DNA of 44,966 nt from a virus (Duplodnaviria; Caudoviricetes). The translations under genes were made by a program, and so were the position numbers. The stretch covers positions 1-44,966 of the IMG/VR virus record IMGVR_UViG_3300032074_000006; one strand, written 5' to 3'. The notes beneath the pieces were generated by a model, which saw only the letters and a list, made by a program, of their open reading frames with translations, was not told where the DNA came from and did no database searches. The number at the start of each line of letters is the position of its first letter. Position 1 is the stretch's first letter. This document shows, in pieces, positions 6,336 through 36,654 of the stretch.

Positions 6336-6800
6336 ATGTCCAGTTTCGACAATGACCTTTTTAATGATGACCCCAACGACAGTGACCTGATCAAGAGTCT
6401 GCGTAAGGCTCTCAAGGATGCTGCCAAGACCATCAAGGAAAAGGACGACGTTCTCTCGGGTTACTCCAAGAAGGAGCGTGCCGCTTCCCTCGCAGACGTG
6501 TTGAGGGAGAAGGGGCTCGACAACCCCAAGGTGACCAAGCTTTATCCGGCGGACGCCGACACCACCCCTGAGGCGGTTGATGCGTGGCTGACTGAGTTCG
6601 GTGACCTGTTCGGGATCAACCGGCAGGAGTCGGTTGCGGACACGGAAACGCAGGCGGCGGCGCGACAGATCACTAACGCGTCCGCGAATGCGCCGGCTGG
6701 CAACGCGTCGTTTGACGTGAGTGCGCTCGTGGCCGAAATCCAGAACGCGAAGAACGACACGGAACTGGCTGCGGCCTATGCAAAGGCCGGGATGAAGTAA
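6336..6800 (+). CDS. Capsid scaffolding protein
   Basis: 154 aa, acidic N-terminus and coiled coil (LIKSLRKALKDAAK), immediately upstream of major capsid gene. Confidence 0.8.
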   Translation: MSSFDNDLFNDDPNDSDLIKSLRKALKDAAKTIKEKDDVLSGYSKKERAASLADVLREKGLDNPKVTKLYPADADTTPEAVDAWLTEFGDLFGINRQESVADTETQAAARQITNASANAPAGNASFDVSALVAEIQNAKNDTELAAAYAKAGMK

Positions 6801-6870
6801 GCCTCAGGCTTACTCCCGGTATTTCCCCATTTCCTGTAATACACGAAATAGAAAGGAGGGTTGATCCAAC

Positions 6871-11541: not shown

Positions 11542-12421
11542 AACACTGGGGTCGCTGATTGATTACATCGGCAACCAGTTGCAGGGCTTCTATGTGGATC
11601 AGCCCATGTATGCGACGACCGATGGTCTGGTGCAGGCGAACGCCCTGGAAATCAAGTTGACGTTGCCGGAGCAGGCGCAGCCGCAGGGCTTGCTTGAGCT
11701 GGACGGCGAACTGATCCATGTGCAGTCGTTCGACGCGGACACCGGTATTGCCACGGTCCCGGCGTGGGGTCGCGGGCAGCAGGGCACGACGCCGGCCGTG
11801 CACGCCTCCGGCTCTAGGGTCACTGTTAATCCCAGGTACCCGCGTAACCGTATCGCGCAGGTCATCAATCAGGTGGTGGCCGGTTTGTGCCCGCCACTCT
11901 TTGCAGTGCAGCGGGGAACGTTCACGACGACGCCTCTGGTGTGGGAGTACGCGCTGCCGACCACGACCCGCAACCTGATCGCGGCCGAGTACCGGCCGTT
12001 CTCCTCGTCGCAATACGACTGGACGCCGATCCGGTCGGCGCACATCAAGCGGGACTCCGGGCTGCCCACTCTGCACATCGGGGATCGCGGCATCGACGCC
12101 TATTCGTGCGAGGTGCGGTACACGGTGGCCGCTAATCCGACCGCCTTTACCAGTGAAGCGCAGGCGTTCACGGCCTGCGGCCTGCCCGAGTCGTGCATCG
12201 ACATTGTGTCGCTCGGCTCTATTCCCCGGCTGGTCACCACTAACGACCTGGCCCGTCAGCAGCTCACTTCGGTTGAGGCCAGCGAGCGCGCCGTTCTCCT
12301 GCCTTCTGGCTCGGGGCCGGCTACCGCCCGTTTCTACATGCAGATGTACGAGGCCCGCCTTAAGGCTGAGGCACAGCGGCTCCGCCAGGAGTACCCGCTA
12401 CGAGTGATGCGGACTATCTAA
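11534..12421 (+). CDS. Head-tail adaptor / tail tubular protein A-like
   Basis: GTG start after AGGAGG; RGQQGTTPAVHA insert, EYALP motif, helical C-terminus typical of podovirus adaptors. Confidence 0.65.
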   Translation: MAETLGSLIDYIGNQLQGFYVDQPMYATTDGLVQANALEIKLTLPEQAQPQGLLELDGELIHVQSFDADTGIATVPAWGRGQQGTTPAVHASGSRVTVNPRYPRNRIAQVINQVVAGLCPPLFAVQRGTFTTTPLVWEYALPTTTRNLIAAEYRPFSSSQYDWTPIRSAHIKRDSGLPTLHIGDRGIDAYSCEVRYTVAANPTAFTSEAQAFTACGLPESCIDIVSLGSIPRLVTTNDLARQQLTSVEASERAVLLPSGSGPATARFYMQMYEARLKAEAQRLRQEYPLRVMRTI

Positions 12422-13625: not shown

Positions 13626-14384
13626 ATGACTGCATCATACAACGGCTTTAAGGCCAGCCCGAATCCCGCCGACTTCGGCGGGCTCGATAACTCTTACGTT
13701 CCCGGTAGTGGCGCGAAGCTCGCACCGGGTGTGCGCGCCGGCGACGTTGCCACCGTCCTGTTCTATGTGGCCGGTCAGCTCGACGCCCGCGTTGAGGACG
13801 GCGACCTGTATCCGCAGGGCGACGAGTGGGGCTATTCGTACCGCCCGTCGAAGAACAGTGCGGCGCTACTTTCCTGCCACAGTTCGGCCACCGCATTCGA
13901 CTGGAATGCGACCAGGCATCCCAATGGTAAGCGGGGCACGTTCACTGCCGCGCAGGTCGCGGAGATTCGCAACATTCTCGCTGAGGTTGATGCCCTCGTG
14001 TATTGGGGTGGCGACGCCTGGGGCAACGGCACCCCGGACGAAATGCACTTTGAGATAGCGGAGGGTGTGACCCTTGAGCAGCTAGCCGAGACTGCGGCCA
14101 AGATCAAGGCCGGTCTGCCTAAGCCGCCCAAGACGCCGGACCCTGATTTCACGTGGCAGCGGGTGCCGCTCGGTTCCCGCATGTTGTCCATCGGCAACCA
14201 GGGCGAGGATGTGTCCGACTTGCAGCGAATCCTCAATACCCGGTTCCCGCTGTATTCCAAGCTGAACGTTGACGGCATCTTCGGTGAGCGCACGGGCGCG
14301 GTGATCCGCGAGTTCCAGAAGCGCAGCAAGCTTGAGGTTGACGGCATTGTCGGCCGGAAGACACTTAAGGCTCTAGGCATTTAA
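13626..14384 (+). CDS. Endolysin: M15 peptidase + peptidoglycan-binding domain
   Basis: SCHSSATAFD and DEMHFE Zn motifs; GEDVSDLQ...DGIFG...FQ...DGIVG PG_binding_1 signature. Confidence 0.92.
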   Translation: MTASYNGFKASPNPADFGGLDNSYVPGSGAKLAPGVRAGDVATVLFYVAGQLDARVEDGDLYPQGDEWGYSYRPSKNSAALLSCHSSATAFDWNATRHPNGKRGTFTAAQVAEIRNILAEVDALVYWGGDAWGNGTPDEMHFEIAEGVTLEQLAETAAKIKAGLPKPPKTPDPDFTWQRVPLGSRMLSIGNQGEDVSDLQRILNTRFPLYSKLNVDGIFGERTGAVIREFQKRSKLEVDGIVGRKTLKALGI

Positions 14385-14394
14385 GGAGTGAGGG

Positions 14395-16293
14395 ATGGTC
14401 ACCGTTCCACTTTCTGATCCCGTTGGCGGTGACCTCCCGATCCCGCTCGGCGGCGGTGAAGTCGGCGCTTCGGGCAAGCTCGATCCCGAGTTCGACGTGT
14501 TCGTGGGCGGGCTAGCGCTGAACCTGCACATCACGAAGGACCAGCCGTACCGCCGCGAGACGGCGGAGTGGCGGAAGCAGCAGGTTGACCAGCAGCCGGA
14601 AGCGGGGGAGCAGTCCCTTTCCGACTGGTGGCTCCGTTCGCAAATGAGCTTTCACGGCGGGGCTGGCATCAAGTATCTGGACACCACGCAGGACGAGGGC
14701 ACGAACCGCATTCGCTACGAGGACTCGCGGGGCATGGACGTGTGGACGGCGGGGGAGATTAAGCCCCTGCCTGACACAACCCTCATGGCAGCCACCAGTG
14801 GAAAGACGTGGGCGTACGCAACGACGGTGGGCTCGGAGTCGTACCTTGTGTACGGCTACGCCAATACAGTGAAGGCGCGTCGCAAGGTTGCGAACGACAC
14901 GATCACCTACACGGTCACCGGAATGGCCGGCTCGATCAAGAGCATGGTCATCGACGGCTCGCACTACTACGTTGCCACGAGCGACGGGCATGTGTTTAAG
15001 GGGCCGATTGATAACAGCGCGGCCGGCGCTGCGATATGGGATTTCGTTTCGTCTAGTGACGTAACCCTGGGGTGGGTCAAGCAGCGGCTCATGGCCGGGA
15101 TCGACAACAAGGTTTACGAGCTGGCCGGGCCGGGGCCGGCGCTGCCCACCGTGCTCTACACGCACCCGTCCTCGGGGTGGCGCTGGACGGCTTGGTCGGA
15201 TGCGCCGACCGCGATCCTCGCGGCGGGTGCCAACGGGCTGAACTCAGCGATCTACGCGTTCAGCCTGAACGACTCGGGCACTGGCGCTCCGGTGCTGACG
15301 CCGGGCCAGATGTTTTGTCAGCTTCCGGTGGGCGAGATAGTGAACTGCCTGTATCTCTACGTCGGGTCGAAGCTTGCGATCGGCACGTCAGCCGGCTTGA
15401 GGGTTGGTCAGTTCGCCGCGTTCTACGGCACGTTCGACCTGGGTCCGTTGTCGGTGAACACGCTGACCAACGTGGGTGCTGTCACTGCAATTACTGGGCG
15501 CGGGAACTTCCTGTACGCGGGGGCTCAAGTTGAGGGTGAGACTTCGCTGTTGCGCCTCGACCTGGGAACGGCCACGGCGGAAGGCCCGGTCTACGCGTGG
15601 GCACCTGATTTGCGTTCTCCGTCCCCGCTGGTCACCGGCCAGGTCAACACCCTCACCGTGGACTCCGATGGACGCCTAGCCTTTGCAGTGCAGGGCTACG
15701 GGGTGGTGCGCGAGGCCACCACGTACGGCGCTCGGGACTCGTGGCTGCGCACGGGCCGGCTGCGGTTCGGCACCGTCGAACCCAAGAACATCAAGTACGG
15801 CCGGGTCCGCACGGAGGGCACGGGCACGGTTTCCGTCACAGCGGTAACCAGCTCGGGGGAGACGCGGGCAGCGTTCGCCGCGTCCACCGCCGCTGACTCT
15901 CAGCGGTTCGGGCTCATCAACGGCCCGGTGGAATGGGTGCAACTCACGTTCACCCTGACCGGCACGGGCAAGCTCACCTCTTATCAGGTTATGGCGTTGC
16001 CGGCTCAGCCGCGCACGCGCCTGTTCGCCCTGCCGGTCGCATTGTTCGACCGGGAAAAGAATAGGCATCAGCGGGACATTGGGTATCCGGGCCGCGCCAA
16101 GCAACTAATGACGGCCCTTGAGGCTATCGAATCATCCGGTGACGAAGTAACGGTCCAATGCCCGGTGCTTGGTGTGGACGCCACTCGTTGCACTGTCGAG
16201 CGGATCGAGTTTACGCAAATGTCGAATCCGACAGCCGGCAAGGCTTACGGACTCGGAGGCTACGCAAACCTCGTGTTCCGTACGAGCACGTGA
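14395..16293 (+). CDS. Tail nozzle / tail tubular protein B-like
   Basis: 632-aa beta-rich protein, GEQSL..WWLRSQ.SFHGGAGIKY N-terminal motif, AAGGAG RBS. Confidence 0.65.
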   Translation: MVTVPLSDPVGGDLPIPLGGGEVGASGKLDPEFDVFVGGLALNLHITKDQPYRRETAEWRKQQVDQQPEAGEQSLSDWWLRSQMSFHGGAGIKYLDTTQDEGTNRIRYEDSRGMDVWTAGEIKPLPDTTLMAATSGKTWAYATTVGSESYLVYGYANTVKARRKVANDTITYTVTGMAGSIKSMVIDGSHYYVATSDGHVFKGPIDNSAAGAAIWDFVSSSDVTLGWVKQRLMAGIDNKVYELAGPGPALPTVLYTHPSSGWRWTAWSDAPTAILAAGANGLNSAIYAFSLNDSGTGAPVLTPGQMFCQLPVGEIVNCLYLYVGSKLAIGTSAGLRVGQFAAFYGTFDLGPLSVNTLTNVGAVTAITGRGNFLYAGAQVEGETSLLRLDLGTATAEGPVYAWAPDLRSPSPLVTGQVNTLTVDSDGRLAFAVQGYGVVREATTYGARDSWLRTGRLRFGTVEPKNIKYGRVRTEGTGTVSVTAVTSSGETRAAFAASTAADSQRFGLINGPVEWVQLTFTLTGTGKLTSYQVMALPAQPRTRLFALPVALFDREKNRHQRDIGYPGRAKQLMTALEAIESSGDEVTVQCPVLGVDATRCTVERIEFTQMSNPTAGKAYGLGGYANLVFRTST

Positions 16294-16628
16294 CCGCCAC
16301 AGTGATTATCACGGGGGTTGCAACTCTGGTGGCCGCGCTCATCGCGGCGGTAGCTGGCCTGATCACCGTTTGGGTCAAGGACAAGCGGGATTATCAGACG
16401 GCAATCCTCGGGGCTAACGACAAACTCATTGACCAGTTGCAGGAGGAACGCAACGAAATCAAGGAGAAGCTGACGCGTATCGCCGTGAAGGTTGACGGCC
16501 TGCTATTGCAGGCCCGATATAAGGACGACTACATTAACTCTCTTCGCTCACACATCGAGCAAGGGAATCCTCCGCCCCCGCCAGGCTATCCGCCTGAGCT
16601 GTTGCGCATTGGAATTGAGGGCCTATGA
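16290..16628 (+). CDS. Lysis-module membrane protein (TM + coiled coil)
   Basis: GTGA-coupled start, one hydrophobic helix, coiled coil, C-terminal PPPPP. Confidence 0.7.
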   Translation: MTATVIITGVATLVAALIAAVAGLITVWVKDKRDYQTAILGANDKLIDQLQEERNEIKEKLTRIAVKVDGLLLQARYKDDYINSLRSHIEQGNPPPPPGYPPELLRIGIEGL

Positions 16629-16816
16629 CTCCCACTCCTAAGGTAGCTGCCGGTGGTATCGCCGGCGCTATCTCAATCCTACTTATCGCAGTGCTGGCTT
16701 ACTTCGGTGTGGACGTTGAGCCCACGGTCGCGTCAGCTATCACCGCGCTCATCGGTTTCGGTGTGGCTTGGCTTAAGCGCGAGAAGGGAATTGACCTTGA
16801 CGACCCCGGTCTATGA
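16625..16816 (+). CDS. Holin
   Basis: 63 aa, two hydrophobic helices, charged C-terminus, PTPKVAAG start. Confidence 0.75.
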   Translation: MTPTPKVAAGGIAGAISILLIAVLAYFGVDVEPTVASAITALIGFGVAWLKREKGIDLDDPGL

Positions 16817-16964
16817 GGACGGCTACTACTCGGGCATCTGCTCTAAGTGCAAGGCTAAGCGCACGTTCTACGGCACCCTCCGCGTGTCGGAGACGGGGCG
16901 CATCTTTGCTGAGGGCCCGTGCCCGATAGACGGCACGCTTATTACTAAGGTTTTGGTGGCATAG
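16797..16964 (+). CDS. DUF5679-like small zinc-ribbon protein
   Basis: CSKCKAKR...GRIFAEGPCPIDGT pattern; GAAGGG RBS before TTG (start may be 16791). Confidence 0.65.
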   Translation: MTTPVYEDGYYSGICSKCKAKRTFYGTLRVSETGRIFAEGPCPIDGTLITKVLVA

Positions 16965-16988
16965 CCGTATCTTCGCACTGTAAATAGT

Positions 16989-17044
16989 AAGACGCCCCTC
17001 CGGGTACCTGGGATTAAACTCCCTGGCCCGGAGGGGCGCTTTTT
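16989..17044. terminator. Bidirectional terminator between convergent operons
   Basis: cgcccctccggg...cccggaggggcg stem flanked by A-rich and ttttt tracts. Confidence 0.8.
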
Positions 17045-17113
17045 GCATTTCCGGTGGGTCAGGAAATGGGGAAACCATACCCACCGTCGATGCAAGGTCC
17101 GGCGGAGGTGGTG

Positions 17114-17374
17114 TCAGGAACCGGACTCGGCCAGTGTAGCAGCAAGGCCACGCTCGGTGGGGAACACGTTGTTGGGGTGCACGGTCACTCGTGATCCAAG
17201 ACAACGTGCCTGCCGCCCGCGATCACCGGGGGTGCGGGCATGCACCATTGCTCGCCAGTCGTTGTACGCGACGTCGCCCCTGTTGTCCCAGTTCTTTGCA
17301 ACGGGAACCGTTCGTCCGCAGTCATTGCAATGAGTGACGTACTTGGCTCGGCTGCGCTGGTGATCTTGTGCCAA
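17114..17374 (-). CDS. Hypothetical Cys/His protein
   Basis: TTG start after AAGGA; HCNDCGRTV...H...CLGS motif. Confidence 0.55.
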   Translation of the reverse strand: MAQDHQRSRAKYVTHCNDCGRTVPVAKNWDNRGDVAYNDWRAMVHARTPGDRGRQARCLGSRVTVHPNNVFPTERGLAATLAESGS

Positions 17375-17571
17375 AACCAGTCCTTCCGATATTGGGCCGT
17401 GAGGCAGCGCCGACATGTCCGCTGTTCGTACTTGATGGACACGAGGTACCACGGCCCGAACTTGTGTGGGTACTTGAGGCACAGTAGCGACGGGCCGAAC
17501 ACTACGGTAAGCAGGGTGCCCACCAGAAAGCAGGCGACGGCAAGTGTGATCACAGCCGCTTGTCCTCCCAT
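17185..17571 (-). CDS. Membrane-anchored Cys protein
   Basis: N-terminal TM, C..PHKFGPW...RTCRRC; the C-terminal half overlaps the next gene and may be spurious. Confidence 0.5.
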   Translation of the reverse strand: MGGQAAVITLAVACFLVGTLLTVVFGPSLLCLKYPHKFGPWYLVSIKYEQRTCRRCLTAQYRKDWFWHKITSAAEPSTSLIAMTADERFPLQRTGTTGATSRTTTGEQWCMPAPPVIAGGRHVVLDHE

Positions 17572-17735
17572 TGCATGTACGTGTTCTCCTCTTCACCGTC
17601 CCAATCCGGGTTGGCAATGAGGCACGAGCTGACGGCCTCGATAGCGACGGGCCAGGTGGCCCCACGGTTGAGTGAGCGCATGATGAGGAACTGGCGCAGC
17701 GTGTACTTGTGGTCGGGAACGGTATTGGTCACCAT
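17550..17735 (-). CDS. Hypothetical protein
   Basis: 61 aa, overlaps both neighbours in operon style. Confidence 0.55.
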   Translation of the reverse strand: MVTNTVPDHKYTLRQFLIMRSLNRGATWPVAIEAVSSCLIANPDWDGEEENTYMQWEDKRL

Positions 17736-17971
17736 TCCTCGCGGACATAAGCGAGGAAGTTGGCAACCCTCTGGTAGCCGGCAGGAAGATTGTCGGCGTA
17801 GAACGGGTCAGCCTCGGTGCCGCGAATCGTCTCGGCCAGGTCGGGGCGCAGTTGCGCGAGCGTGTTAAAGGCGGTCTGCCCCAACCGCCAGTTCATGTAC
17901 TTAACCTGATTGATGATGACTGCCTCAAGGTAGTCGTCATACGCGATGTTGGCTGTGACCTCGACTGCCAT
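17729..17971 (-). CDS. Conserved-looking phage hypothetical protein
   Basis: WRLGQTAFN...IRGTEADPFY motif; AAGGGGGA RBS. Confidence 0.7.
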   Translation of the reverse strand: MAVEVTANIAYDDYLEAVIINQVKYMNWRLGQTAFNTLAQLRPDLAETIRGTEADPFYADNLPAGYQRVANFLAYVREEW

Positions 17972-18119
17972 AAACGTATCCCCCTTGGTTGGAGAGCTTG
18001 GCGAGCAGAACGTTCCTTCTGGCATTCGCAGTGCAGTCGCACAGCCCGCCTCTGCGGGTGAGACAGTACCCGGTGTGCGGGATTGCTGCGGCTACCGCTT
18101 GTTCGACGGCAGGGTTCAC
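17937..18119 (-). CDS. Small hypothetical protein (H..YC...CDC)
   Basis: GTGA-coupled start; MNPAVEQAVAAAIPHTGYCLTRRGGLCDCTANARR. Confidence 0.5.
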   Translation of the reverse strand: MNPAVEQAVAAAIPHTGYCLTRRGGLCDCTANARRNVLLAKLSNQGGYVYGSRGHSQHRV

Positions 18120-18391
18120 GCCCTGTGCTTCCCCTCCGCAATGTCGTTCAGATCCCCGATCAGCCATGCCCCCTCGCACTCGGCGTGGATCATGAATACC
18201 TTGTCCCGGTTGGCGTGGGCGATGGATTCCAGTGCCGCCCACGGCGACGGGTAGGAGGGGTCGGTGATGACCGGCTCGGGAATGTCGGTCCCGATGCTTG
18301 CGGGAATGGCGGTGTAGCCGCCGTTCAGGTGGGACCGCACAACCCAAAAGGGTTTGCCCCGGGTTGCTGCCTGAATCTCCGCGACGTTCAC
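18116..18391 (-). CDS. Hypothetical protein
   Basis: 91 aa, GTGA coupling on both sides. Confidence 0.6.
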   Translation of the reverse strand: MNVAEIQAATRGKPFWVVRSHLNGGYTAIPASIGTDIPEPVITDPSYPSPWAALESIAHANRDKVFMIHAECEGAWLIGDLNDIAEGKHRA

Positions 18392-18900
18392 ACGCCCACC
18401 AGTTCGGACACGCGGAAATCCTCAAGGGCCTGACGCCGGCTGTCGGCGGTGGCCTCGGCCTTGTCGGCTGCGAGCCGCATCATGTTGATAGCGACCTTAT
18501 CTCCGGTGCAATGCTGGTCGTTGTAGTGGGTGACAAGATCAAACGGTTCCATTTCCCGCGTGTTCTTGCACCCGCATTCGCAGGACGCCTCGGGGTCGCA
18601 CGAGGAGCACAGGCCCGTGGGGATCATATCTGCGAGGACGGTAATGGCAGCTTCGCAGCGGAACAGGCCGGGGTCGTCGTGGTGCAACGACAGGCCCATG
18701 AATCCTGCGCTCGGACTCATGGAGAAGGTGCGGGTGACCAGTGTCTTGTAGGTGGCGAGTTCGATAGCGCCCACGGCGCACACCGATCCGCTGGCGTAGT
18801 CAACGAGCGAACCCTGAAAGTGGCCGGCGTGTTTGATGACCATTGCGGCGTTGCGCAGGTCGTGTGCGGCGGTGACGAGCTGGTGCTGCGTGAGCTGCAT
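18388..18900 (-). CDS. DUF6197-like protein
   Basis: G.FQG...GSVCAVGAI...HYND pattern with Cys-rich insert; AGGGGGA RBS. Confidence 0.6.
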   Translation of the reverse strand: MQLTQHQLVTAAHDLRNAAMVIKHAGHFQGSLVDYASGSVCAVGAIELATYKTLVTRTFSMSPSAGFMGLSLHHDDPGLFRCEAAITVLADMIPTGLCSSCDPEASCECGCKNTREMEPFDLVTHYNDQHCTGDKVAINMMRLAADKAEATADSRRQALEDFRVSELVGV

Positions 18901-18908
18901 TGTTCCCC

Positions 18909-19316
18909 CTAGAACAGTTCGGCGTCGAACGACTCGGGTCGTTCGGTGGCGAGCACGATCAGCTCACCCCATGCGGACTCAACGACCTTGTACTTGGGCG
19001 TGTTGTCCTTGGCGCTGGTTGGAATGGTGGCCGGGTCGATGCAGTCGCGTGGCCCCATTCCTTTCCGGTGGTCATCGAACCAGCGGACGGTGGAGAACTG
19101 CCGGTGGCAGATAGGGCAGTGGCATTCGCGTGCCGCCGTCCATACCCGCTTGCACTTGTGGCAGGTGGCGGAATTGCTAGGCCGGTCCTGTACTAGTTCC
19201 GGGTGTGCCGCTCGGTAGGCGCTGTGAATCTCGGGGGCTATGCGCCCCCTGTCCGCAATGGTGTAGCCGTTGGTGCGCGCCCATTCGCGGACGGACGGGA
19301 TAGATGTTGCGGTCAT
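18909..19316 (-). CDS. Lsr2 DNA-binding domain fused to FDxHR zinc-binding domain
   Basis: VREWARTNGYTIADRGRI (Lsr2 C-terminal domain) then CHKC..W...HCPICHRQFS...FDDHR. Confidence 0.85.
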   Translation of the reverse strand: MTATSIPSVREWARTNGYTIADRGRIAPEIHSAYRAAHPELVQDRPSNSATCHKCKRVWTAARECHCPICHRQFSTVRWFDDHRKGMGPRDCIDPATIPTSAKDNTPKYKVVESAWGELIVLATERPESFDAELF

Positions 19317-19342
19317 GTAACTTCCTCATTTCCTACTGACTC

Positions 19343-19372
19343 AACGTAATCGGACGGATACGGGTCGGTCAA
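19343..19372 (-). promoter_or_regulatory. SigA-like promoter for Lsr2-FDxHR operon
   Basis: TTGACC-18 nt-TACGTT on the minus strand; the -35 overlaps the recombinase stop codon. Confidence 0.55.
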
Positions 19373-20367
19373 GGCCGCAACCGGATGACCGTTGCCAAAC
19401 CGAACCGTTCCGTTTCGGCACTAGTTGCCGTAGCCAACGGCGACACCCACACATTGCTACGCATGATCTTGTTACGCCGGTCACGATCCCCCTGCACGCC
19501 CAAGTACAGCTCCGTGGTGCGACGCGACTGGTGGTGCAGGAGCGCGGCGACCACGCCCACCGGGTCTTCCTCGCCGGCAGCCACGAGTGCGTCATAGCGC
19601 AGGCGTGCCATGCTGCGCCGAATGGTGTGGAAGCCTCTGCGCATTTCCACTGCCACCCCGAGAGCGTCAAGGGCACGGTGCACAATGAGGTACGGGTGGC
19701 TCATCGGCTTGTCCGGGTGCAGGAGCAACTGACGCCCGCCCTCGGTGATGCGGTACGTCAGCGACGGGAACAGGTAATCCTCGGGGGCGAGGGGCCGACC
19801 GATGTTCGCCGCATAGGCGTGCAGATAGTTCGCAAGCTCAAGCTCAAGATCATCCGTGATTGGCATTTCATCCCACGCGAACTCGCCTTCCGTCTTCATC
19901 ACCCGCACATCGGCATAGCCGTCCTGCCTTCGCAGGTGCCCCACCCGCAGATAGGCAATCTCCGAACCGCGCAGCAGCCATTCGATAGCGACGGCGATAG
20001 CGGCACGGTCACGCTTGTTCTTAGCCTGATCGGGCAGCGCCTTAATCTGGTCCAAGTCAAGGCGTAGTTGCCGACGCGCGGGATCGTGTAGCCGGCTGAC
20101 GGTGGGCGTGCGTTCCATCCACCCTTCCCGCCGTGCGTAATTGAGGAAGGCACGCACCCGGTCTAGGTACTTCTCCGCCGACGACGGGGACACCTTGAGT
20201 CCGTTCCGCCAGTGCCGCAGCATGGCGGCGGTCAGCTCGGGCAGCTCGACGCCGCCGTACTGGTCTGCTAGCCGGCCCAACGTCTGCTTGATGTTGCGGT
20301 AGGTGAGGGCACTGACCTCGGGCTCACGCTCACTCAGGTACAGTGCAATAGCTTCTGACACCTTCAT
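19369..20367 (-). CDS. Tyrosine recombinase (Xer/integrase family)
   Basis: LRGSEI (R), K, HTIRR (HxxR), LLHH...TTELY (H,Y); core-binding domain but no N-terminal arm-binding extension. Confidence 0.92.
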   Translation of the reverse strand: MKVSEAIALYLSEREPEVSALTYRNIKQTLGRLADQYGGVELPELTAAMLRHWRNGLKVSPSSAEKYLDRVRAFLNYARREGWMERTPTVSRLHDPARRQLRLDLDQIKALPDQAKNKRDRAAIAVAIEWLLRGSEIAYLRVGHLRRQDGYADVRVMKTEGEFAWDEMPITDDLELELANYLHAYAANIGRPLAPEDYLFPSLTYRITEGGRQLLLHPDKPMSHPYLIVHRALDALGVAVEMRRGFHTIRRSMARLRYDALVAAGEEDPVGVVAALLHHQSRRTTELYLGVQGDRDRRNKIMRSNVWVSPLATATSAETERFGLATVIRLRP

Positions 20368-20384
20368 ACGGCGCACGGTAGCAG

Positions 20385-20422
20385 AGAGGCCCGCCCCCCA
20401 CCACGGGGGACGGGCCTCTTTT
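20385..20422. terminator. Hairpin/terminator upstream of recombinase
   Basis: agaggcccgccccc-accac-gggggacgggcctct then ttt. Confidence 0.65.
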
Positions 20423-20433
20423 CCAGTGCGGGT

Positions 20434-20643
20434 CTACGCCTCGGGGCTTAGGTAGACCTCGATCACCTGGCGTCCCCGCGCTCGCTCGCGGATCACACAC
20501 AGCTTCGCCCAATCCGACGCCCCCCCGTAGGGGGTCGCCTTCGGCTGATGGAAGAATGCATAACCCCGCCCCTCGCCAGGCAGCTTGTGCGCTTTCACGG
20601 TCGCCTTCCACTCCATGCCGGTGAGGCCCACGTTGTCGCTCAT
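20434..20643 (-). CDS. Hypothetical protein
   Basis: 69 aa, TGATG coupling with ParB-like gene. Confidence 0.55.
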   Translation of the reverse strand: MSDNVGLTGMEWKATVKAHKLPGEGRGYAFFHQPKATPYGGASDWAKLCVIRERARGRQVIEVYLSPEA

Positions 20644-21533
20644 CAGACGATGGGGATGAACGGGTCGTGGTCGTGCACCACCACACGGTCAAGCGTCTCA
20701 TCCATGCGCCAGGCATTCCACACCGTCAACAGGACAGTGAGGCTCTTGTCCGACGCGTTGCGTTCCTGAACCAGCTTGCCCGTCTTAGGCCGGGCAGCAA
20801 TCGCAGCGAGATAGCGGTACAACGCCATGACCGGGGAACCCGGCCGCATCTCCCCGCCCAACACCTCGTTAGCGAACGTGAACGCATCCCGTTCTTCCTG
20901 CGCAGCGGCCATAGCCATGAACGCAAACCACACGCTCTTAGAAATACCCGGCCCCGTCTTGTGCATCTGACCAGCAACCGGCGCAGTCTTAGTGTGTTCC
21001 GGGTGCTTGCCCAAGTATTCCAAGGCAGCGTCGGGGGAGAGGGCCACCACGTCACGGCGCATAGACGGCGACGCATCATGCTTGAGGCCGCGTGCCTCGG
21101 CAGCCTCATACCGCAACCGCAGATTGATAGCGGCAGCCACATTGTTCGCCTCGTAAATGCCTTCCATCTGGAAGGTGTGCGACGTGTTGCGGCGCAAACC
21201 CACATCGACACGGCGCTTCGTGTCCAACGACAGGCCGGTCTTAATGGTGGTGGCGAACGGCACGCCGGCCTGCACGCACGCCTTGAGGCGGTGCTGCCCG
21301 TCGATCAAATCACCAGTGCGGGCAAACTTAATGTCGGACGCGTCGGGATCCCACCGGCCCGCCTTCATTTCGATAACCCAACGGTCAACCGCCGCCTTGG
21401 ACAGTTTGCGGTTGTTCGGGTTCCGATCGGTCAGCCACTTGTCGGCCAACTCGGGGGTGACGAGAACGATGTGCGTACCCCGCCGCACCATCCATTCGTC
21501 GTCCCATTCCTTGACCTCAGGTCCGTCGTTCAT
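20643..21533 (-). CDS. ParB/Srx-like N-terminal domain protein (DGQHR motif)
   Basis: VTPELA.KWL..N..NR.L...G.LIDGQHRL.A; ATG 21533 follows GGAAATGGGGA. Confidence 0.8.
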   Translation of the reverse strand: MNDGPEVKEWDDEWMVRRGTHIVLVTPELADKWLTDRNPNNRKLSKAAVDRWVIEMKAGRWDPDASDIKFARTGDLIDGQHRLKACVQAGVPFATTIKTGLSLDTKRRVDVGLRRNTSHTFQMEGIYEANNVAAAINLRLRYEAAEARGLKHDASPSMRRDVVALSPDAALEYLGKHPEHTKTAPVAGQMHKTGPGISKSVWFAFMAMAAAQEERDAFTFANEVLGGEMRPGSPVMALYRYLAAIAARPKTGKLVQERNASDKSLTVLLTVWNAWRMDETLDRVVVHDHDPFIPIV

Positions 21534-22189
21534 CCAGTCCCCATTTCCATCTCGTCGCGGTAGTAGCCGTCCGGCCCCACCATGTCTGCGATCCAGAACG
21601 CACCCCAACCAGTGCGCTCCACAACCTGCGACAGTGAATAGCCCTCGCGGACCATTCGACGCACATCGCGCAGGGAGAATGCAGGATTGCGTGACTTGCA
21701 ATCCATGTCGATAGCCGGCCGTTTCGGCTTGAGCTTCGCAAGCATGCGCTGCACCGTGACCAACTGAGGGTCGGGCTTCGGCTCAGGCTTCGGCACTTCC
21801 TCATCGCCGTATCGGTAGCGCCACCAGTCCTCGCCTCCGATGGACGCCCACCATTCCCGCTTGCTCTGACCAGTGCTGAACGCATCCGCGACCGTGACCA
21901 CGGGCTCAGCGTGGGAAAAGGGTACGACAGTTTGCTTGCGCACAGGGGAGGCGGGGGACAGGTCAGCACCCCGTTTGCGCAGGTCAGATAGCCAGTTCTG
22001 CCAGCCTCGGTACTCGCTCGGGGTGGAGGGGACGACCACCTGCGACGCCTCGCGGTCGGGCGGAACTAGAACCGGGTGGTTGTGGCCTCGCTTGTACCGC
22101 CACCCCTGGTCGCGGACCAGTAGCCGGCACACGTTCCGGTACTCGGGCTGTAGCTCAGCTCCGGGCCAATCGGATTCTGCGGGAGGCAC
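21530..22189 (-). CDS. HicA-like domain protein with C-terminal HTH-like segment
   Basis: QGWRYKRGHNHPVLVPP...VVVPSTPSEYR..NWLSDLRKRG; C-terminal VRRMVREGYSLSQVVERTGW; AGGAG RBS before GTG. Confidence 0.65.
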   Translation of the reverse strand: MPPAESDWPGAELQPEYRNVCRLLVRDQGWRYKRGHNHPVLVPPDREASQVVVPSTPSEYRGWQNWLSDLRKRGADLSPASPVRKQTVVPFSHAEPVVTVADAFSTGQSKREWWASIGGEDWWRYRYGDEEVPKPEPKPDPQLVTVQRMLAKLKPKRPAIDMDCKSRNPAFSLRDVRRMVREGYSLSQVVERTGWGAFWIADMVGPDGYYRDEMEMGTG

Positions 22190-25564: not shown

Positions 25565-25827
25565 GCGAACAGCTCCTTAATGGTGGTGGCCTTCCGCTTG
25601 GCGTCGGCCGCACTGCGGCGGGCGGTGCCGGCTACACGGGCAAGCTCACCGGCCGTGGTGTCGGCATCGTGAGCCAGCACCCCAAACTGTTCCGCCGCGT
25701 CCTCAAGATCGTTGGCAGCCGTGGTGAACACGTCCACCGCATAGCCCTGCAATGCGGCCACACTGTTAAGCCGTTCCTCGTGGGTCATCGGCTTCGGCGT
25801 GTAGCCCGGGATCAACCTGCGAATCAT
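25561..25827 (-). CDS. Coiled-coil hypothetical protein
   Basis: Ala-rich helical ORF; start uncertain (25827 or 25788). Confidence 0.55.
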   Translation of the reverse strand: MIRRLIPGYTPKPMTHEERLNSVAALQGYAVDVFTTAANDLEDAAEQFGVLAHDADTTAGELARVAGTARRSAADAKRKATTIKELFA

Positions 25828-26506
25828 CGAATATCCATTCATCAAGATCACAACGTGTGAGGAATCCCTCGGCACCTTCGGTGGAAAGAACTTCGTTCGC
25901 ATCCATATCCGTAGGCATGTGAACAACCCGTGCCTGCGGAACGTCCTGAGCGATGAGCTTGGCTAGTGCCTTGCCCGCCTTATCCCCGTCAGCCGGCACA
26001 ATGACCAGCGGGAAAGGGGAGAGAGTGCGCGCCCAATACTTGTGCTTGGCCCACATATCCGCACCCGGCACAGCAACAGCCGGGTAGCCGGTGAATGTCT
26101 GCACTGCAATGCAGTCCAGCTCACCCTCTGTTACGAATATGAATGGGGCGCTGGTGAGGGTGGCCCCCGCATTAAACAAGCGGGGTTCCTCGCCGTCGTC
26201 ATGCAAATACTTAGGGCAGCCGGTGCTCTTGCAGTCATGGTTACGCATGCACCGATACTTGATGCCCAGCATTCCGCTCATCGTGAGATACGGGATGCTC
26301 AGCCGGCCGATGAGGTAATCCTGCGGGTGGTCATCGACCACACCCAGCCGGAAGTTCTCGACGGCGGTAGTGGCAAGGGGCTCAGTAAAGCCCCGTGTCA
26401 TCAAATAGTCCACCGCTGCCCGACTGTTTGCCTCGTACGCCTGACTGCGCTTGTCCAGTAAGTTCCTCTGCTCGCTCGACGGCAACCGCAAAGGTGATCC
26501 CTTCAT
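25766..26506 (-). CDS. DNA primase, catalytic/TOPRIM part
   Basis: YL..RG, RLSIPY, IKYR, KYL, VTEGELD, VPG, DGDKAG, D.NE motifs. Confidence 0.9.
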   Translation of the reverse strand: MKGSPLRLPSSEQRNLLDKRSQAYEANSRAAVDYLMTRGFTEPLATTAVENFRLGVVDDHPQDYLIGRLSIPYLTMSGMLGIKYRCMRNHDCKSTGCPKYLHDDGEEPRLFNAGATLTSAPFIFVTEGELDCIAVQTFTGYPAVAVPGADMWAKHKYWARTLSPFPLVIVPADGDKAGKALAKLIAQDVPQARVVHMPTDMDANEVLSTEGAEGFLTRCDLDEWIFDDSQVDPGLHAEADDPRGTA

Positions 26507-26723
26507 GCCGCATCAGCAGCTCAATAGCATCGCCCGTCTCCCCGCAAGCGAAGCAACGGAACCTGTTGTTCTGGTAGTCGATGACGGCGGAGGCCACACT
26601 GTCATCGTGGAATGAGCACTTGGCTTTCACTCTGCCGCTGCGCCGGCCACCGGGAATGATCTGCCCCAGGTAGTCAAGGATTGGTTCGATAGGAAACTTA
26701 GTGATCCGGGTTTTGCGGGCCAC
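26382..26723 (-). CDS. DNA primase, CHC2 zinc-finger part
   Basis: CSFHDD...S...FRCFACGETGDAIELLM..EG..F..AV. Confidence 0.9.
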   Translation of the reverse strand: MARKTRITKFPIEPILDYLGQIIPGGRRSGRVKAKCSFHDDSVASAVIDYQNNRFRCFACGETGDAIELLMRHEGITFAVAVERAEELTGQAQSGVRGKQSGSGGLFDDTGLY

Positions 26724-30710: not shown

Positions 30711-31259
30711 TCAGGCGTCCGCCTTCTCCTTCTCGCCACCCTTGGTGGCAGCAGCCGCCTTCTTCGGCTCGGAGGCATTGCGCTGCCCCTTCGCTGCCTC
30801 CTTCGCTGCCTCCACCCGCGCCGCCACGTTCTCCGGGTGGTTGGCGTTGGTCAGCAGCTCAGCGTCCGTGGCCTTCGCCGGCGACGGGATCGTGGTCTGC
30901 GTCCCCGAGTTGCGGGACTCGTACATCTCCACGATCGCGTGCGGGATGCGGCCACGAGACTCGGGCTTCATGTGCCCGTGCTCCACCGCCCACTCGCGGA
31001 TCGTGCGCGCCCGCTCCCGGTCGGACTCCGACCGGCCACCGCCCGACGAGGAACGGCGCGAGCTGGTGTGCCGGGTCAGCCGGCGCGCAGCACCGACGTA
31101 CTTGTTCAGCGCGTCCCGCATCTTGTCGGCGTTCTCCGTGGACAGGTCGATCTCGTACTCGTGCCCGTCCAGAGCGAACGTCACCGGGCCACCCTGCCCC
31201 TCGGGGATTTCCGTGCCGGTCAGGTCGTCCACGTACAGGGTCAGAACCTTGCTTGCCAT
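30711..31259 (-). CDS. lsr2: Lsr2 nucleoid-associated protein with Ala/Lys-rich tail
   Basis: MASKV...VDDLTG...FALDG..YEIDLS..NA dimerisation domain; IREWA..HG...SRGRIP DNA-binding domain. Confidence 0.95.
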   Translation of the reverse strand: MASKVLTLYVDDLTGTEIPEGQGGPVTFALDGHEYEIDLSTENADKMRDALNKYVGAARRLTRHTSSRRSSSGGGRSESDRERARTIREWAVEHGHMKPESRGRIPHAIVEMYESRNSGTQTTIPSPAKATDAELLTNANHPENVAARVEAAKEAAKGQRNASEPKKAAAATKGGEKEKADA

Positions 31260-31295
31260 GATGTGTTCTCCATTTCGCTTGGGTTGTTGAGTCGA

Positions 31296-31910: not shown

Positions 31911-32006
31911 CGTTCCCCATTTCCTGTGTGTTCCCTGTCAACCGTTCCGGCTGAACGGTCAGCCCCACGCTCAGACGATAGACCGTCTGAGCGTGAGACT
32001 CACCCC

Positions 32007-32270
32007 TCAGTCGTGACCGCCCCGCAGGAAATCCTCCCGCGCATCCCACCCCTCCTCATCTGCCGGCGAAGGTTCACGGTCCGGCTCATCCGGCCCCTCC
32101 CGCCACACCTCAGGCGGCATGCCGCCGTTCGATAGGTGCGAGTCCAACACAAAGAACATCGACGCCATGCGCCGCGCCTCAGCCGGCGACCCACCGTCCG
32201 TGATCCACGCCTCAGCCAGCCGGCGCAACTCAGCTAGCACCGTCTCAACTGTCAGCCGGTGATCGTCCAT
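32007..32270 (-). CDS. Hypothetical early protein
   Basis: LD.HLSNGG.PP..W motif, acidic tail; GAGGA RBS. Confidence 0.65.
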   Translation of the reverse strand: MDDHRLTVETVLAELRRLAEAWITDGGSPAEARRMASMFFVLDSHLSNGGMPPEVWREGPDEPDREPSPADEEGWDAREDFLRGGHD

Positions 32271-32552: not shown

Positions 32553-32679
32553 GACTCCCCATTCCCTTTCGTTGACTGACACACGGCGGGAGCCGTGGTC
32601 TGCCAATGCTTACGCATTGACTGAGTGGATCAGGCAAGGCACGGGGTGATGAGCCCGTGCCCTCCCGTGTCCCGATCAG

Positions 32680-33615
32680 TCAGTCAGTGCCAAGCTCGAT
32701 GCCGGCGATCCACTCATCATCGACCAGCGGGGCAATCTTGCCGATCAGCTCTAGCCCCGCCTTACGCACCGTGTCAGCCGCCGCAGCGATCTTCTTAGCA
32801 TCGCCACCAGACCACACACCCACATAAGGCACCGTGTAAGAGGACGAATCCGCACCAGCCCAGTGCATCACCAGATAGGCCACCGACTCGGCCTCCACCT
32901 CGCACCGGCCGCGCGCCTCCCGGTCCGTGTGATATTCGGCAGTATTCTCCCCGTGCCCACACAGAATGTGGCCCAACTCGTGAGCCAGCGTCTTACATTT
33001 CTGCGCATCGGCCACATCATCACGCACCCGGACCAGCCGCTTACCGAAGTCCGTAAAGCCGTTCGCCGTGCCGCAATCGCCCCACTCAAGAGCGAAACCC
33101 ATGTCGGCAGTGATAGCCACCAGCGCCTCTAGCAACGTGCCCGGACCGTCACCCGTCAACAACTCCGGGCCGAACGCTGGCAGCTCCTCCCCGTCCGTCT
33201 GCGCAGCCACCCACACATAGACGACACGGAAACCGACCAGCACCCGCCGTTCCTCCACCTTGCCCGACTCCCGGTCGATCACCTCACGCTTCGCCATGAT
33301 CGGAGCAAGAATCGGAATGCCCTTCTCGCCCTTACGCACCGACCGGCCAAGCTTCTTCCACGTGTGAAAGCCAGCGGCCGGACCGTACTCAATGCCGCGC
33401 CGATCACACTCCACCATGATCAGCAGAGAATTGTTGAGCGAGTAGTTGTGGAACGTCGCCGCCACCTCAAGCATGCGTCGCCACCCCTCATCCGTGGCGA
33501 GGCCGGCTACGGCGGACTCAAGCGACGCCAACGCGGCGTCAACCTTAGCCTTCCGATTCTCAGCGGCCATTGCGTGATCCTCCGCCGTCATACGTGAACG
33601 AGTCGAAACAGTCAT
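32680..33615 (-). CDS. ardC: ArdC-like antirestriction protein (ssDNA-binding + metallopeptidase-like domain)
   Basis: FHNYSLNN.LLI...GFHTWKKLGRSVRKGEKGIPILAP; TLAHELGH...EVEAESVAYLV. Confidence 0.9.
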   Translation of the reverse strand: MTVSTRSRMTAEDHAMAAENRKAKVDAALASLESAVAGLATDEGWRRMLEVAATFHNYSLNNSLLIMVECDRRGIEYGPAAGFHTWKKLGRSVRKGEKGIPILAPIMAKREVIDRESGKVEERRVLVGFRVVYVWVAAQTDGEELPAFGPELLTGDGPGTLLEALVAITADMGFALEWGDCGTANGFTDFGKRLVRVRDDVADAQKCKTLAHELGHILCGHGENTAEYHTDREARGRCEVEAESVAYLVMHWAGADSSSYTVPYVGVWSGGDAKKIAAAADTVRKAGLELIGKIAPLVDDEWIAGIELGTD

Positions 33616-33715
33616 CGGAAATCCCCATTTCCTCATCGGTACAGGTAACGCCTACTCGGCTGAGTAGACACCGCGCCACACTAGCCACGCCATATCTAGT
33701 GCGGACGGAATCAGC

Positions 33716-33913
33716 TCAGCGAATACGGACGCCTACTATCACGTAACCTAGCTGCCGCTCAATCGCGCCGGCATACTCGCGTGCCGTCATCCCTGCCGGC
33801 AGGGCCACAGGAATCTGCCGGCCGTCCGGATAACGGACGATCACAGAAACCGTGCTAACGCCGTTCACCACCTCAGCCGGCCGCGACCACTCGGCACCCG
33901 ACATATCCGCCAT
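33716..33913 (-). CDS. Hypothetical early protein
   Basis: 65 aa, flanked by conserved intergenic modules. Confidence 0.55.
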   Translation of the reverse strand: MADMSGAEWSRPAEVVNGVSTVSVIVRYPDGRQIPVALPAGMTAREYAGAIERQLGYVIVGVRIR

Positions 33914-34757: not shown

Positions 34758-34806
34758 GGAGACAAGCTAACCGACGAATGGCGGATGTGCCGAACCAACC
34801 GCCGAT

Positions 34807-35211
34807 GTTACCAAACCGTTACAAAGCCATCATAACGTTTAACCATGCAACACCATGCATAACCATACATCCTCGTATTCGTCATACATTCGTCATACAA
34901 CGGAGGAGCTAGCGTGCCATGCACGATGGCCCGGGCCATATAGTTGTGCGCAACTCAGTTGTGCAGGGTATGGGTGTCGCCCTGCCCGTGGATTCCGTCG
35001 GGAATCACCATCGCCGCAGCTCAGCACCTCGTTAGGGTGCCCTTATGTCGGTGGCGTTGGGCCGTTAGGCCCCTACGCCGCACCCGGGGTTGTTGATCCC
35101 CGTGCGCGTATAAATGTGTACTAACCCAGTGTGGATTTGTGGGGGTTGTGGGGTGGGGGTTGGCCGGCTGGGCGTGCATAGTCATGCATGGCTTGGTAAC
35201 GGTTGTGTAAC
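34807..35211. repeat. 24-bp imperfect inverted repeat pair, each with GTTAC-N6-GTTAC
   Basis: 34807-34830 gttaccaaaccgttacaaagccat vs reverse complement of 35188-35211 gttacacaaccgttaccaagccat (21/24). Confidence 0.85.
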
Positions 35212-35278
35212 GTTTGGCGCTTTTTGTGGGGTTGGCTGTCAGAGGTTGCGTCTGATAGCAGGCTTTTATATAAGTGAG

Positions 35279-35418
35279 GGAGCGAAGCGACCGAACGCTC
35301 CGCTCCTTGTAATGAGGCGCTTTGAGAGCGCCTCTTACTTACTTGTTTTACGACGCCCTTTAGGGGGCGTCGATATTGGGAGAGGCTGGGGCCTCTCTTA
35401 CAGGGGCGCTTTAGCGCC
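35279..35418. repeat. Cluster of five tandem hairpins
   Basis: Stems 35279-35306, 35314-35334, 35351-35372, 35380-35397, 35405-35418. Confidence 0.85.
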
Positions 35419-35692
35419 TTAGGGAATTACGTGGGCCAGGGGTCTATTGACACGAGACGCGCTCAATTACCGCTAGCTGAGGCCAGAGGTTACGCGTGTG
35501 GCGCGTGTGGTGTGGGCTTGTGGCCGGCGCTGGGGTGCCCTTAGTCTGGTTGCGCTGCCGGGTTCCAACTTGAGAGGAAGTCTCTCCCTGTCGCCCGGTG
35601 GCCGCGTTTCCCTCATCAGATATGGGGGCTCGTGTGCGTGTTTGCTGTGTGGCTGTTCGCAGTTCTGGGGATAGAGTCTGCGAACGACGGAG

Positions 35693-35726
35693 AGCCCCCG
35701 CCCCTTGTTCCTGGGCGGGGGCTTTC
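35693..35726. terminator. Intrinsic terminator-like hairpin
   Basis: agcccccgccc-cttgttcct-gggcgggggct then ttc. Confidence 0.7.
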
Positions 35727-35737
35727 TGCTGTGCCGG

Positions 35738-35836
35738 CTATAGCCAGAGGGTGAGGGCGATGAGTACGCCGACCATGAGGGCGATGCTGGCGAGGACTGC
35801 GACTCTGAGCCACCAGGGCCAGGGGTCTACTCCCAC
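35738..35836 (-). CDS. 32-aa membrane peptide
   Basis: MGVDPWPWWLRVAVLASIALMVGVLIALTLWL; overlaps upstream stop, followed by hairpin. Confidence 0.55.
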   Translation of the reverse strand: MGVDPWPWWLRVAVLASIALMVGVLIALTLWL

Positions 35837-36000
35837 GCCCGGAAGTATGGGCGCATCCACTTGGGGAGCTGGGCGATGACGCTCGCGGCGGTGATGACGC
35901 CGGCCGCGTCGTCGGCGGCGGTGAGGGTTTCCACTGCGCGTTGGGCGCGGGCTCGGGCGACGACGGGTCGCGGCTTCGGCGGCGGCTTCCGGCTGGTCAT
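35827..36000 (-). CDS. 57-aa basic hypothetical protein, leaderless
   Basis: MTSRKPPPKPRPVVARARAQRAVETL...; promoter directly upstream. Confidence 0.55.
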   Translation of the reverse strand: MTSRKPPPKPRPVVARARAQRAVETLTAADDAAGVITAASVIAQLPKWMRPYFRAWE

Positions 36001-36006
36001 GGCCGC

Positions 36007-36035
36007 ACTGTAGGGACGGCGACACGCCGTGTCAG
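36007..36035 (-). promoter_or_regulatory. SigA-like leaderless promoter
   Basis: CTGACA-17 nt-TACAGT-6 nt-ATG(36000). Confidence 0.6.
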
Positions 36036-36211
36036 CCCACGTCCCCCGATGCGGTGTATTGCCGTGCGAGGGTTCCCCGGAACGCAGTGAGGGCCAGGGG
36101 TTCCGACGCCCCTGACCCTCGTGTACTGCACCCACCAACGCCCGGTGGGGTTGCCCCACAGTACAGGGGCTTCTCCCTCTCAGGCGCGAAGGACACGCCG
36201 AGGGGTTGAGG

Positions 36212-36373
36212 ATGAACAGGAAGCGCAAGAGCCGCAGGGCTCCGCTGCCGGCGACGCCTCCCCCGCTTCACTGCTCGACGTGCGGTTGGCCGCGTGGCGG
36301 TTCGTACGACTGGACCGGCTGGCACCGCTTCTGCGCCCCGGACGCGAAGAACCCCGGACTGCCTATGGAGTGA
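36212..36373 (+). CDS. 53-aa Cys/His peptide (not in ORF track)
   Basis: MNRKRKSRRAPLPATPPPLHCSTCGWP...WHRFC; GAGGGG/GAGG RBS. Confidence 0.45.
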   Translation: MNRKRKSRRAPLPATPPPLHCSTCGWPRGGSYDWTGWHRFCAPDAKNPGLPME

Positions 36374-36654
36374 ATCCACAGGAAGTGCCGGGGTTCCAGG
36401 CGTCGGGCCAACGACTGGAACCCATTGTCCACACCCGTGTGCGTTCGCGCAACCGGGCCTGAGGCGTGTCTGAAAACTCCACAGCTCTGCCGACCGTGCT
36501 CGACGGCGCTCGCCTCGCGCGGTTCCTTTTTAGAACGGTCCCCGGAGGGGACCGTAAAACAGTTCTTCGGCTTTCAGTTAGATGACGTTGAGACTTTCTC
36601 CGTTATTACGTTAGCCGGGTACGTTCATCGCACCTGTGGAAATGTGGAAAACTC

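Follow-up and report, generated by a model that had tools for sequence, protein, structure and literature searches.

The leftward early arm of the phage described here ends in a predicted RNA hairpin whose open loop is antisense to a short tag in the ribosome-binding sites (RBSs) of genes of the same phage, and we put the probability that this hairpin is an antisense RNA damping the tagged early genes at roughly 0.55. The tag, its positions, its complementarity to the loop and the predicted fold are read directly from the window, that is, the whole stretch of 44,966 nucleotides that was analysed. The element is real and non-random, and it is outside every catalogued RNA family; an Rfam scan of the whole window gave 0 matches at the gathering threshold. 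In the proposed mechanism, the element would form the 3' terminus of the early transcript, would survive as a stable fragment between two strong stems and would accumulate over time. The open loop would pair with the tag in the RBS of four early genes and cover the Shine-Dalgarno (SD) bases, by which translation would be damped, so that the first early genes (ORF 31910, ORF 32552, ardC and ORF 21533) would come under negative feedback after a delay. The bases of the tag that do not match 16S rRNA would make the RNA specific for phage messages. If loop and tag do pair, a single small RNA would govern a whole set of phage genes via a shared, phage-specific RBS.

The source is a soil phage, and its record is complete, with a 244-nt end repeat. 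The rightward genes, structural and lysis, extend up to the holin at 16625, and the leftward genes, from about 34.7 kb to 17.1 kb, include those for replication, an integrase, a sigma-like protein, lsr2 and ardC. The nearest cultured kin are the Streptomyces cluster BF podoviruses (capsid 32-37%, tail protein 33-36% identity), and because of this kinship and of Lsr2 the host is probably an actinobacterium. Closer kin are known as proteins (60-94% protein identity). Comparison of window positions 14500-22000 and of the hairpin with cultured phages by blastn gave no match, scans for capsid and helicase relatives returned nothing besides the phage's own contig, and a search of genome contigs yielded four distant fragments, all without the late/early junction; four DNA runs, possibly the source of the phage DNA, showed no variant letters. 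A Kineococcus genome contig (L177) matches the start of the tail protein at 49%, a possible prophage relative and a hint to the host. The primase (25766-26723) is split over two overlapping ORFs, an arrangement also annotated in the BF phage Immanuel3. A stretch of about 1.8 kb (34760-36600) that separates the early arm from the large terminase gene (terL) carries no confident gene and contains short repeats and hairpins; it is likely a control region or an origin.

The junction of the two arms contains the following features:
17114..17374, minus strand: last ORF of the early arm, probably a gene (86 aa, no family), with its stop 19 nt before the hairpin
17043..17095, minus strand: predicted RNA hairpin with a 6-bp and an 8-bp stem, at the 3' untranslated end of the leftward early arm
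17060..17078, minus strand: C/U-rich 19-nt loop, antisense to the start tag and containing UCCC
16981..17044, no strand assigned: terminator-like hairpin where the late and early arms converge, flanked by T runs on both sides

The stem arms are TTGCAT (17043-48) with ATGCAA (17090-95) and CGGTGGGT (17052-59) with ACCCACCG (17079-86). The hairpin folds at -25.3 kcal/mol with a z of -3.48 (0/200 shuffles as good), and hairpin and terminator together reach a z of -4.98. The 12-nt loop core is unpaired at 0.82 in the ensemble, and an open-centred hairpin of this type occurred in 4 of 3000 random 57-nt windows. The terminator arms, 16991-17004 and 17027-17039, were detected only in part by a simple plus-strand scan. 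On the other strand the hairpin energy is nearly equal (-24.4 vs -25.3) and the terminator looks bidirectional, so the window alone leaves the strand unfixed; sigma-70 scans found no promoter near the hairpin. The terminator apex (17001-17017) has a 17-nt exact inverted match within late-gene coding sequence (11826-11842), which may be chance.

The sequence-only reading had proposed that the early genes share one RBS motif complementary to the loop, and the coordinates that it gave for hairpin, loop and tags all agree with the sequence. Counted against the shuffled genome, the motif, represented by the 11-mer GGAAATGGGGA, occurs 8 times at no more than one mismatch, with 0.58 +/- 0.71 expected and 0/100 shuffles reaching this count. 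The sense copies number seven, one two-mismatch site counted in, and each lies 3-7 nt before an ATG; six of the seven are in the early arm and the remaining weak one precedes terL:
31913..31926, minus strand: tag 3 nt before ORF 31910 (120 aa, no family), the loop's best RBS partner, 14 nt exact
33622..33633, minus strand: tag 6 nt before the ATG at 33615, ardC-like (Pfam ArdcN and Peptidase_M78), 12 nt exact
21538..21548, minus strand: tag 4 nt before the ATG at 21533, within the last part of the preceding ORF, 11 nt exact
32556..32566, minus strand: one-mismatch tag 3 nt before ORF 32552, the changed base making a G-U pair with the loop
19323..19333, minus strand: one-mismatch tag of ORF 19316 (Lsr2 DNA-binding and zinc domains), a weak partner
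31267..31277, minus strand: two-mismatch tag of lsr2 (31259), a weak partner
36638..36648, plus strand: one-mismatch tag of the large terminase (36655), a weak partner

The exact complement is 8 nt long before 32552 and 19316, and 7 nt before 31259 and terL. Relative to the inferred local transcription, two of the nine copies would be antisense, namely the hairpin loop and a stretch at 6822-6836. About a dozen other, unrelated exact repeats of at least 15 nt exist in this genome, and match length therefore proves little; it is position and the shared tag that count. The matches before ORF 31910, ORF 21533 and ardC were borne out, with two reservations: ardC has a second possible start at 33570 with an SD of its own, and if this start is used the tag is not the ardC RBS, and the 'ParB-like' label of ORF 21533 goes back to a single weak PHROG match (phrog_5931, E 6e-4).

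The AATG core of the tag is kept in seven of seven copies and does not pair with the usual 16S anti-SD. The ideal actinobacterial SD is GAAAGGAGG. Judged by its letters (GAAAUGGGG vs the ideal GAAAGGAGG), the tag is an SAS-like (start-associated sequence) variant of an extended Shine-Dalgarno sequence. Reading the ATG inside the tag as the start of an upstream ORF was rejected; it is never in the frame of the gene, and a common stop pattern is absent. The 120 nt upstream of the seven tagged starts, when read and folded, contain long stems, and a shared repeat was not noticed by eye. Long predicted minus-strand stems lie at 33640-33735, 32575-32670, 31930-32030 and 19340-19435, each directly before a tagged start; they leave the tag single-stranded and resemble RNase III processing sites. 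Two Lsr2-domain genes (18909-19316 and 30711-31259) are both tagged, one of them a fusion of an Lsr2 DNA-binding domain with a phage zinc-binding domain.

Ranked over the 58 predicted starts, the loop pairs best with 31910, 33615, 32552 and 21533 (-25.6 to -20.3), a ranking with four tagged starts at the top that 0/500 shuffled loops matched. Genome-wide, the best duplexes are formed with the loop's own complement, the complement of the 6822 copy and then three tagged RBSs. After opening costs, the net energies are -17.7 for 31910, -9.8 for 33615, -13.9 for 32552 and -12.6 for 21533; the weak tags (19316, lsr2 31259 and terL) reach -3.9 to -5.8, and five untagged control starts -6.0 to +0.4. 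As the weak tags fall within the control range, only four targets are credible, including ardC with its uncertain start. The variants reported before 32552, 19316, lsr2 and terL are thus all present, but only that before 32552 pairs beyond the controls. When whole molecules are cofolded with kissing disallowed, the values for 31910, 33615, 32552 and 21533 are -17.6, -7.5, -2.8 and -10.3, which is weak for three of the four targets (-2.8 to -10.3).

Junction and second hairpin were compared in the two closest relatives whose DNA covers this region, L004, with 57% identity in the tail protein, and G001, with 43% in the capsid. In both, a terminator with an adjoining hairpin occupies the junction; the stem letters of this hairpin differ from those of the window, and its apex on the early strand is C/U-rich. 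The shuffle z of the early strand is -2.5 in L004 and -3.3 in G001, with -0.9 and -1.3 on the other strand; by raw energies the early strand is favoured in L004, and the strands are equal in G001 and the window. In L004, whose DNA covers the last early genes only, two G-U extensions close much of the loop. The junction loop of G001 has a match of at least 9 nt at one of its own 65 starts and resembles two RBSs (8 and 7 nt exact), neither of them among its top 25 duplexes. The main tag of G001 is GGCACAC, the complement of which occurs five times and matches 3/65 starts at 9 nt or longer; it stands at two early-strand predicted hairpin apices (14180-14245 and 35545-35600), the terminator apex being assigned by fold and that at 14202 by reading the arms. 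The covariation of loop and tag expected in relatives is weak: a hairpin with other letters is kept in position, but the loop-tag match of G001 is poor. In distant relatives the terminator is general and the second hairpin rare (flagged at 4/82 and 3/63 loci, including the phage itself); L018, L035 and L242 were flagged by script, and their printed bases are unlike the junction anatomy of the window. A scan for the stem pattern found ten loci, which are L004, G001 and eight unrelated chance hairpins. G002, G003 and G005 end before the junction.

The same design with another tag was found in the cluster BF Streptomyces phages. In FlowerPower, Immanuel3 and Abafar, a tag of their own, CAAGGG(G)AGAGA, is found at 7-9 starts that lie upstream of a single intergenic gap. 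In these three genomes, read whole, the only reversed copy, GGGGAGAGA, is the loop of a long hairpin in this gap, on the transcribed strand. All 29 BF records (some duplicates) match the anti-tag element. In an alignment of 11 copies (10 distinct), 99% of the cells pair as against 32-61% in slid controls, and a figure from shuffling cannot be read as a probability here, the sequences being related; 3/20 pairs are changed on both sides (compensatory), the loop core is invariant, and G-U pairs mark the tagged strand. The hairpin is downstream of most tags (9/11, 8/10 and 7/9 minus-strand matches). As it is sited elsewhere than the hairpin of the window, it is an analogue. With a 16-nt probe, the tagged starts of FlowerPower and Abafar did not rank within the top 14 duplexes.

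In cluster K mycobacteriophages, one reversed SAS was listed in four K1 phages and left unexplained in the accessible passages (Pope et al. 2011, PMC3203893). In Adephagia this reversed SAS is the loop of a predicted hairpin of -33.7 kcal/mol in the gap after gene 92, a region matched by 146 records, and in LastHope, Niklas and Enkosi, as in Adephagia, it is a predicted hairpin loop on the transcribed strand. Among nine cluster K copies chosen for divergence and aligned, the loop is open and unchanged in four, has one change in one (Ekdilam, with the SAS unchanged) and is lost in four: the anti-SAS loop is absent from Keshu, Pixie, SirPhilip and Yuna, and Pixie, of which the right arm was covered, has 18 sense tags there and the loop replaced. 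Blind whole-genome tests of TM4 (9 sense, 0 reversed) and AnnaSerena (10 sense, 0 reversed) revealed no anti-tag loop, which shows that tags do not require one.

Starts matched at 9 nt or more by the loop of their own group number 3/58 in the window, 9/66 and 10/62 in BF and 16/60 in K; across groups, a loop matches 0-1 starts at this length, and the K loop matches 0/58 in the window. Part of this own-group match is built in, as a reversed-tag search was used to find the BF and K loops; what the comparison adds is that the reversed copy forms a loop.

The SAS and ESAS of cluster K (PMC3203893) and of cluster EF Microbacterium phages (PMC7302621) are, in the passages available, asymmetric, over-conserved motifs at the RBS position, 3-7 nt before the ATG as here, and mostly at non-structural genes after gaps. 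The cluster K consensus is GGGATAGGAGCCC in 11-19 copies, whereas the tag of the window is a different motif with seven sense copies; compared with SAS, it has fewer copies (7 vs 10-19), is more degenerate and has two reversed copies, and an ESAS repeat was not recognised. The K1 phages carry one reversed copy, which in the present analysis is a predicted hairpin loop; neither a function of SAS nor a hairpin is given in the passages available of PMC3203893 and PMC7302621. Among antisense RNAs, the element is predicted to act like those with a UCCC loop or of the c4 type, with an SAS-like tag. RNAIII, RsaE, SprD, FsrA and LhrC present a C-rich single-stranded loop to the SDs of several mRNAs, according to the part of PMC4132741 at hand, as the window element would; these are host-encoded, proven transcripts, whereas the latter is phage-encoded and predicted and would target its own tagged genes. 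In c4 antisense RNA of P1/P7, the loops of a phage RNA base-pair in the RBS region of a phage mRNA and so prevent its translation (PMC12197685, in part), a further likeness, but c4 serves one antirepressor operon in an immunity region, whereas the window loop would serve several scattered genes from the late/early junction and has no Rfam match. Literature linking SAS to an antisense hairpin was not found in a search of largely open-access papers; tag and hairpin are unmentioned in the accessible text of PMC9753666, and looking up the terms in PMC8263002 and PMC9262239 gave nothing relevant.

The sequence-only reading, a phage-encoded antisense circuit shutting off early genes, thus gains from the target ranking, the hairpins of L004 and G001 and the same design with other tags in BF and K, while the weak covariation in G001 and the incompleteness of a one-RNA model limit it. 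It had also named a DNA operator as the alternative. All copies would then be sites in double-stranded DNA at which a protein of phage or host binds, of the operator or stoperator type, and the hairpin would be incidental, which we consider unlikely. Cluster A stoperators are repeated asymmetric motifs of 11-15 bp, in one orientation relative to transcription, which serve as DNA sites for the repressor. They act on transcription, whereas the copies in the window occupy the SD position, 3-7 nt before ATG, or, when reversed, lie in hairpin or leader RNA; with two of nine copies antisense, the one-orientation rule is broken in the window. In favour of a DNA site, the two non-start copies share 15 nt in opposite orientations, both at regulatory gaps, and the gene products of the phage include an integrase, a sigma-like protein and two proteins with an Lsr2 domain; PMC3203893, which names the stoperators, leaves open in the passages available whether SASs bind protein or RNA. 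Nevertheless, the reversed copies are hairpin apices in three unrelated tag systems although a DNA site needs no stem, and the compensatory and G-U pairs of BF make sense for one RNA strand only.

The antisense inventory of the sequence-only reading contained the loop and overlooked a second copy, which lies in the capsid leader:
6822..6836, plus strand: second antisense copy, which shares 15 identical nt with the loop and lies in the gap between scaffold and major capsid genes
6796..6814, plus strand: hairpin of 8 bp that spans the scaffold stop codon and immediately precedes the antisense copy at 6822-6836

This copy is a 15-nt exact complement of the 31910 tag and is predicted to pair in cis with a tag-like stretch (6841-6854) just before the capsid SD. 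As the capsid leader thus holds an equally good antisense copy, the one-RNA model is incomplete, and the copy might serve as an additional repressor that acts late, or as a switch opening the capsid RBS; in the antisense mechanism it may do the same job as the hairpin once late mRNA is abundant. It is improbable, in our judgement, that capsid leader and tag are the working pair, with the minus-strand loop secondary. Here a tag RNA, either early messages or a late-strand read-through hairpin, would bind 6822-6836 and open the capsid RBS, and early shut-off would be coupled to the capsid. Self-pairing apart, the loop sequence forms its best duplex with the 6822 site, the late-strand loop reaches -27.8 with the phage's own capsid gap as against -14.6 with the next of 20 gaps, the leader and the 31910 RBS cofold at -26.6 with the capsid SD region freed, and the capsid gap of G001 resembles the G001 junction loop. 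However, C-rich tracts are common in capsid leaders of the phage's family, of which the window's own pair alone stands out and that of G001 ranks 2/20; the late-strand hairpin needs terminator read-through and gains only -5.5 in cofolding; and the shuffle z in L004 and G001 favours the early strand. In BF capsid gaps (L181:18660-18685, L277, L278), a short cis hairpin right behind the scaffold stop sequesters the capsid SD, which suggests translational coupling.

Loop and tag might also pair without repression, by a kissing contact within one early transcript or by guiding an RNase or stabilising the message, to which we give a low probability. Hairpin and targets are on the same strand and could share one transcript, and four tagged starts follow stems of at least 20 pairs that resemble processing sites, but it is the purine-rich SD bases that the pairing would cover, and with UCCC-loop sRNAs such pairing blocks initiation (PMC4132741, in the part available), and the targets are 4-16 kb distant. 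It is very unlikely that the parts are ordinary ones, a favoured extended SD and a 3' stabilising stem with a C-rich loop, matched by chance or as the leftover of an inverted duplication: the other long repeats of the genome, the resemblance of the tag to the ideal SD and the several tagged phages without a loop fit this, but the usual 16S anti-SD matches only 0-1 starts per phage at 9 nt or more without preferring the tagged ones, the loop carries the non-SD bases of the tag, and the design recurs with three different tags. A decoy of the CsrA/Rsm type was rejected, as no CsrA domain occurs in 56 Pfam or 65 PHROG translations and the strand clues favour antisense.

Beyond the window, we tentatively propose, at clearly less than even odds, that actinophage lineages have repeatedly evolved private RBS tags on their early genes, each with a matching anti-tag loop placed after the tagged genes, as a protein-free early timer, and that here the capsid-leader anti-tag couples early shut-off to capsid synthesis. 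If such a lineage-wide system is true, it would explain the SASs of cluster K and the unreported hairpin in all BF records searched. The role of SAS was left open in the passages available of the 2011 and 2020 papers (PMC3203893, PMC7302621), and the antisense reading is a testable answer to it; the phage of the window is uncultured, and the same design in cultured BF Streptomyces phages and K1 mycobacteriophages makes it testable there. Tag/loop pairs from different phages do not cross-match and are therefore candidate orthogonal translation switches for actinobacteria.

The intergenic regions of both groups contain more than the anti-tag loop. In BF, a conserved three-part element (L181:38045-38115 of FlowerPower, L277, L278, L279-L286) consists of a small hairpin, the anti-tag hairpin and a strong canonical SD, and is unannotated in the records read. 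The cluster K gap (L161:3440-3890, Adephagia 58.4-58.9 kb; L168-L174) has a terminator, an invariant TAGACT hexamer, a first hairpin that is conserved, and further stems; it is a candidate stand-alone structured RNA, which persists also in phages that have lost the anti-SAS loop.
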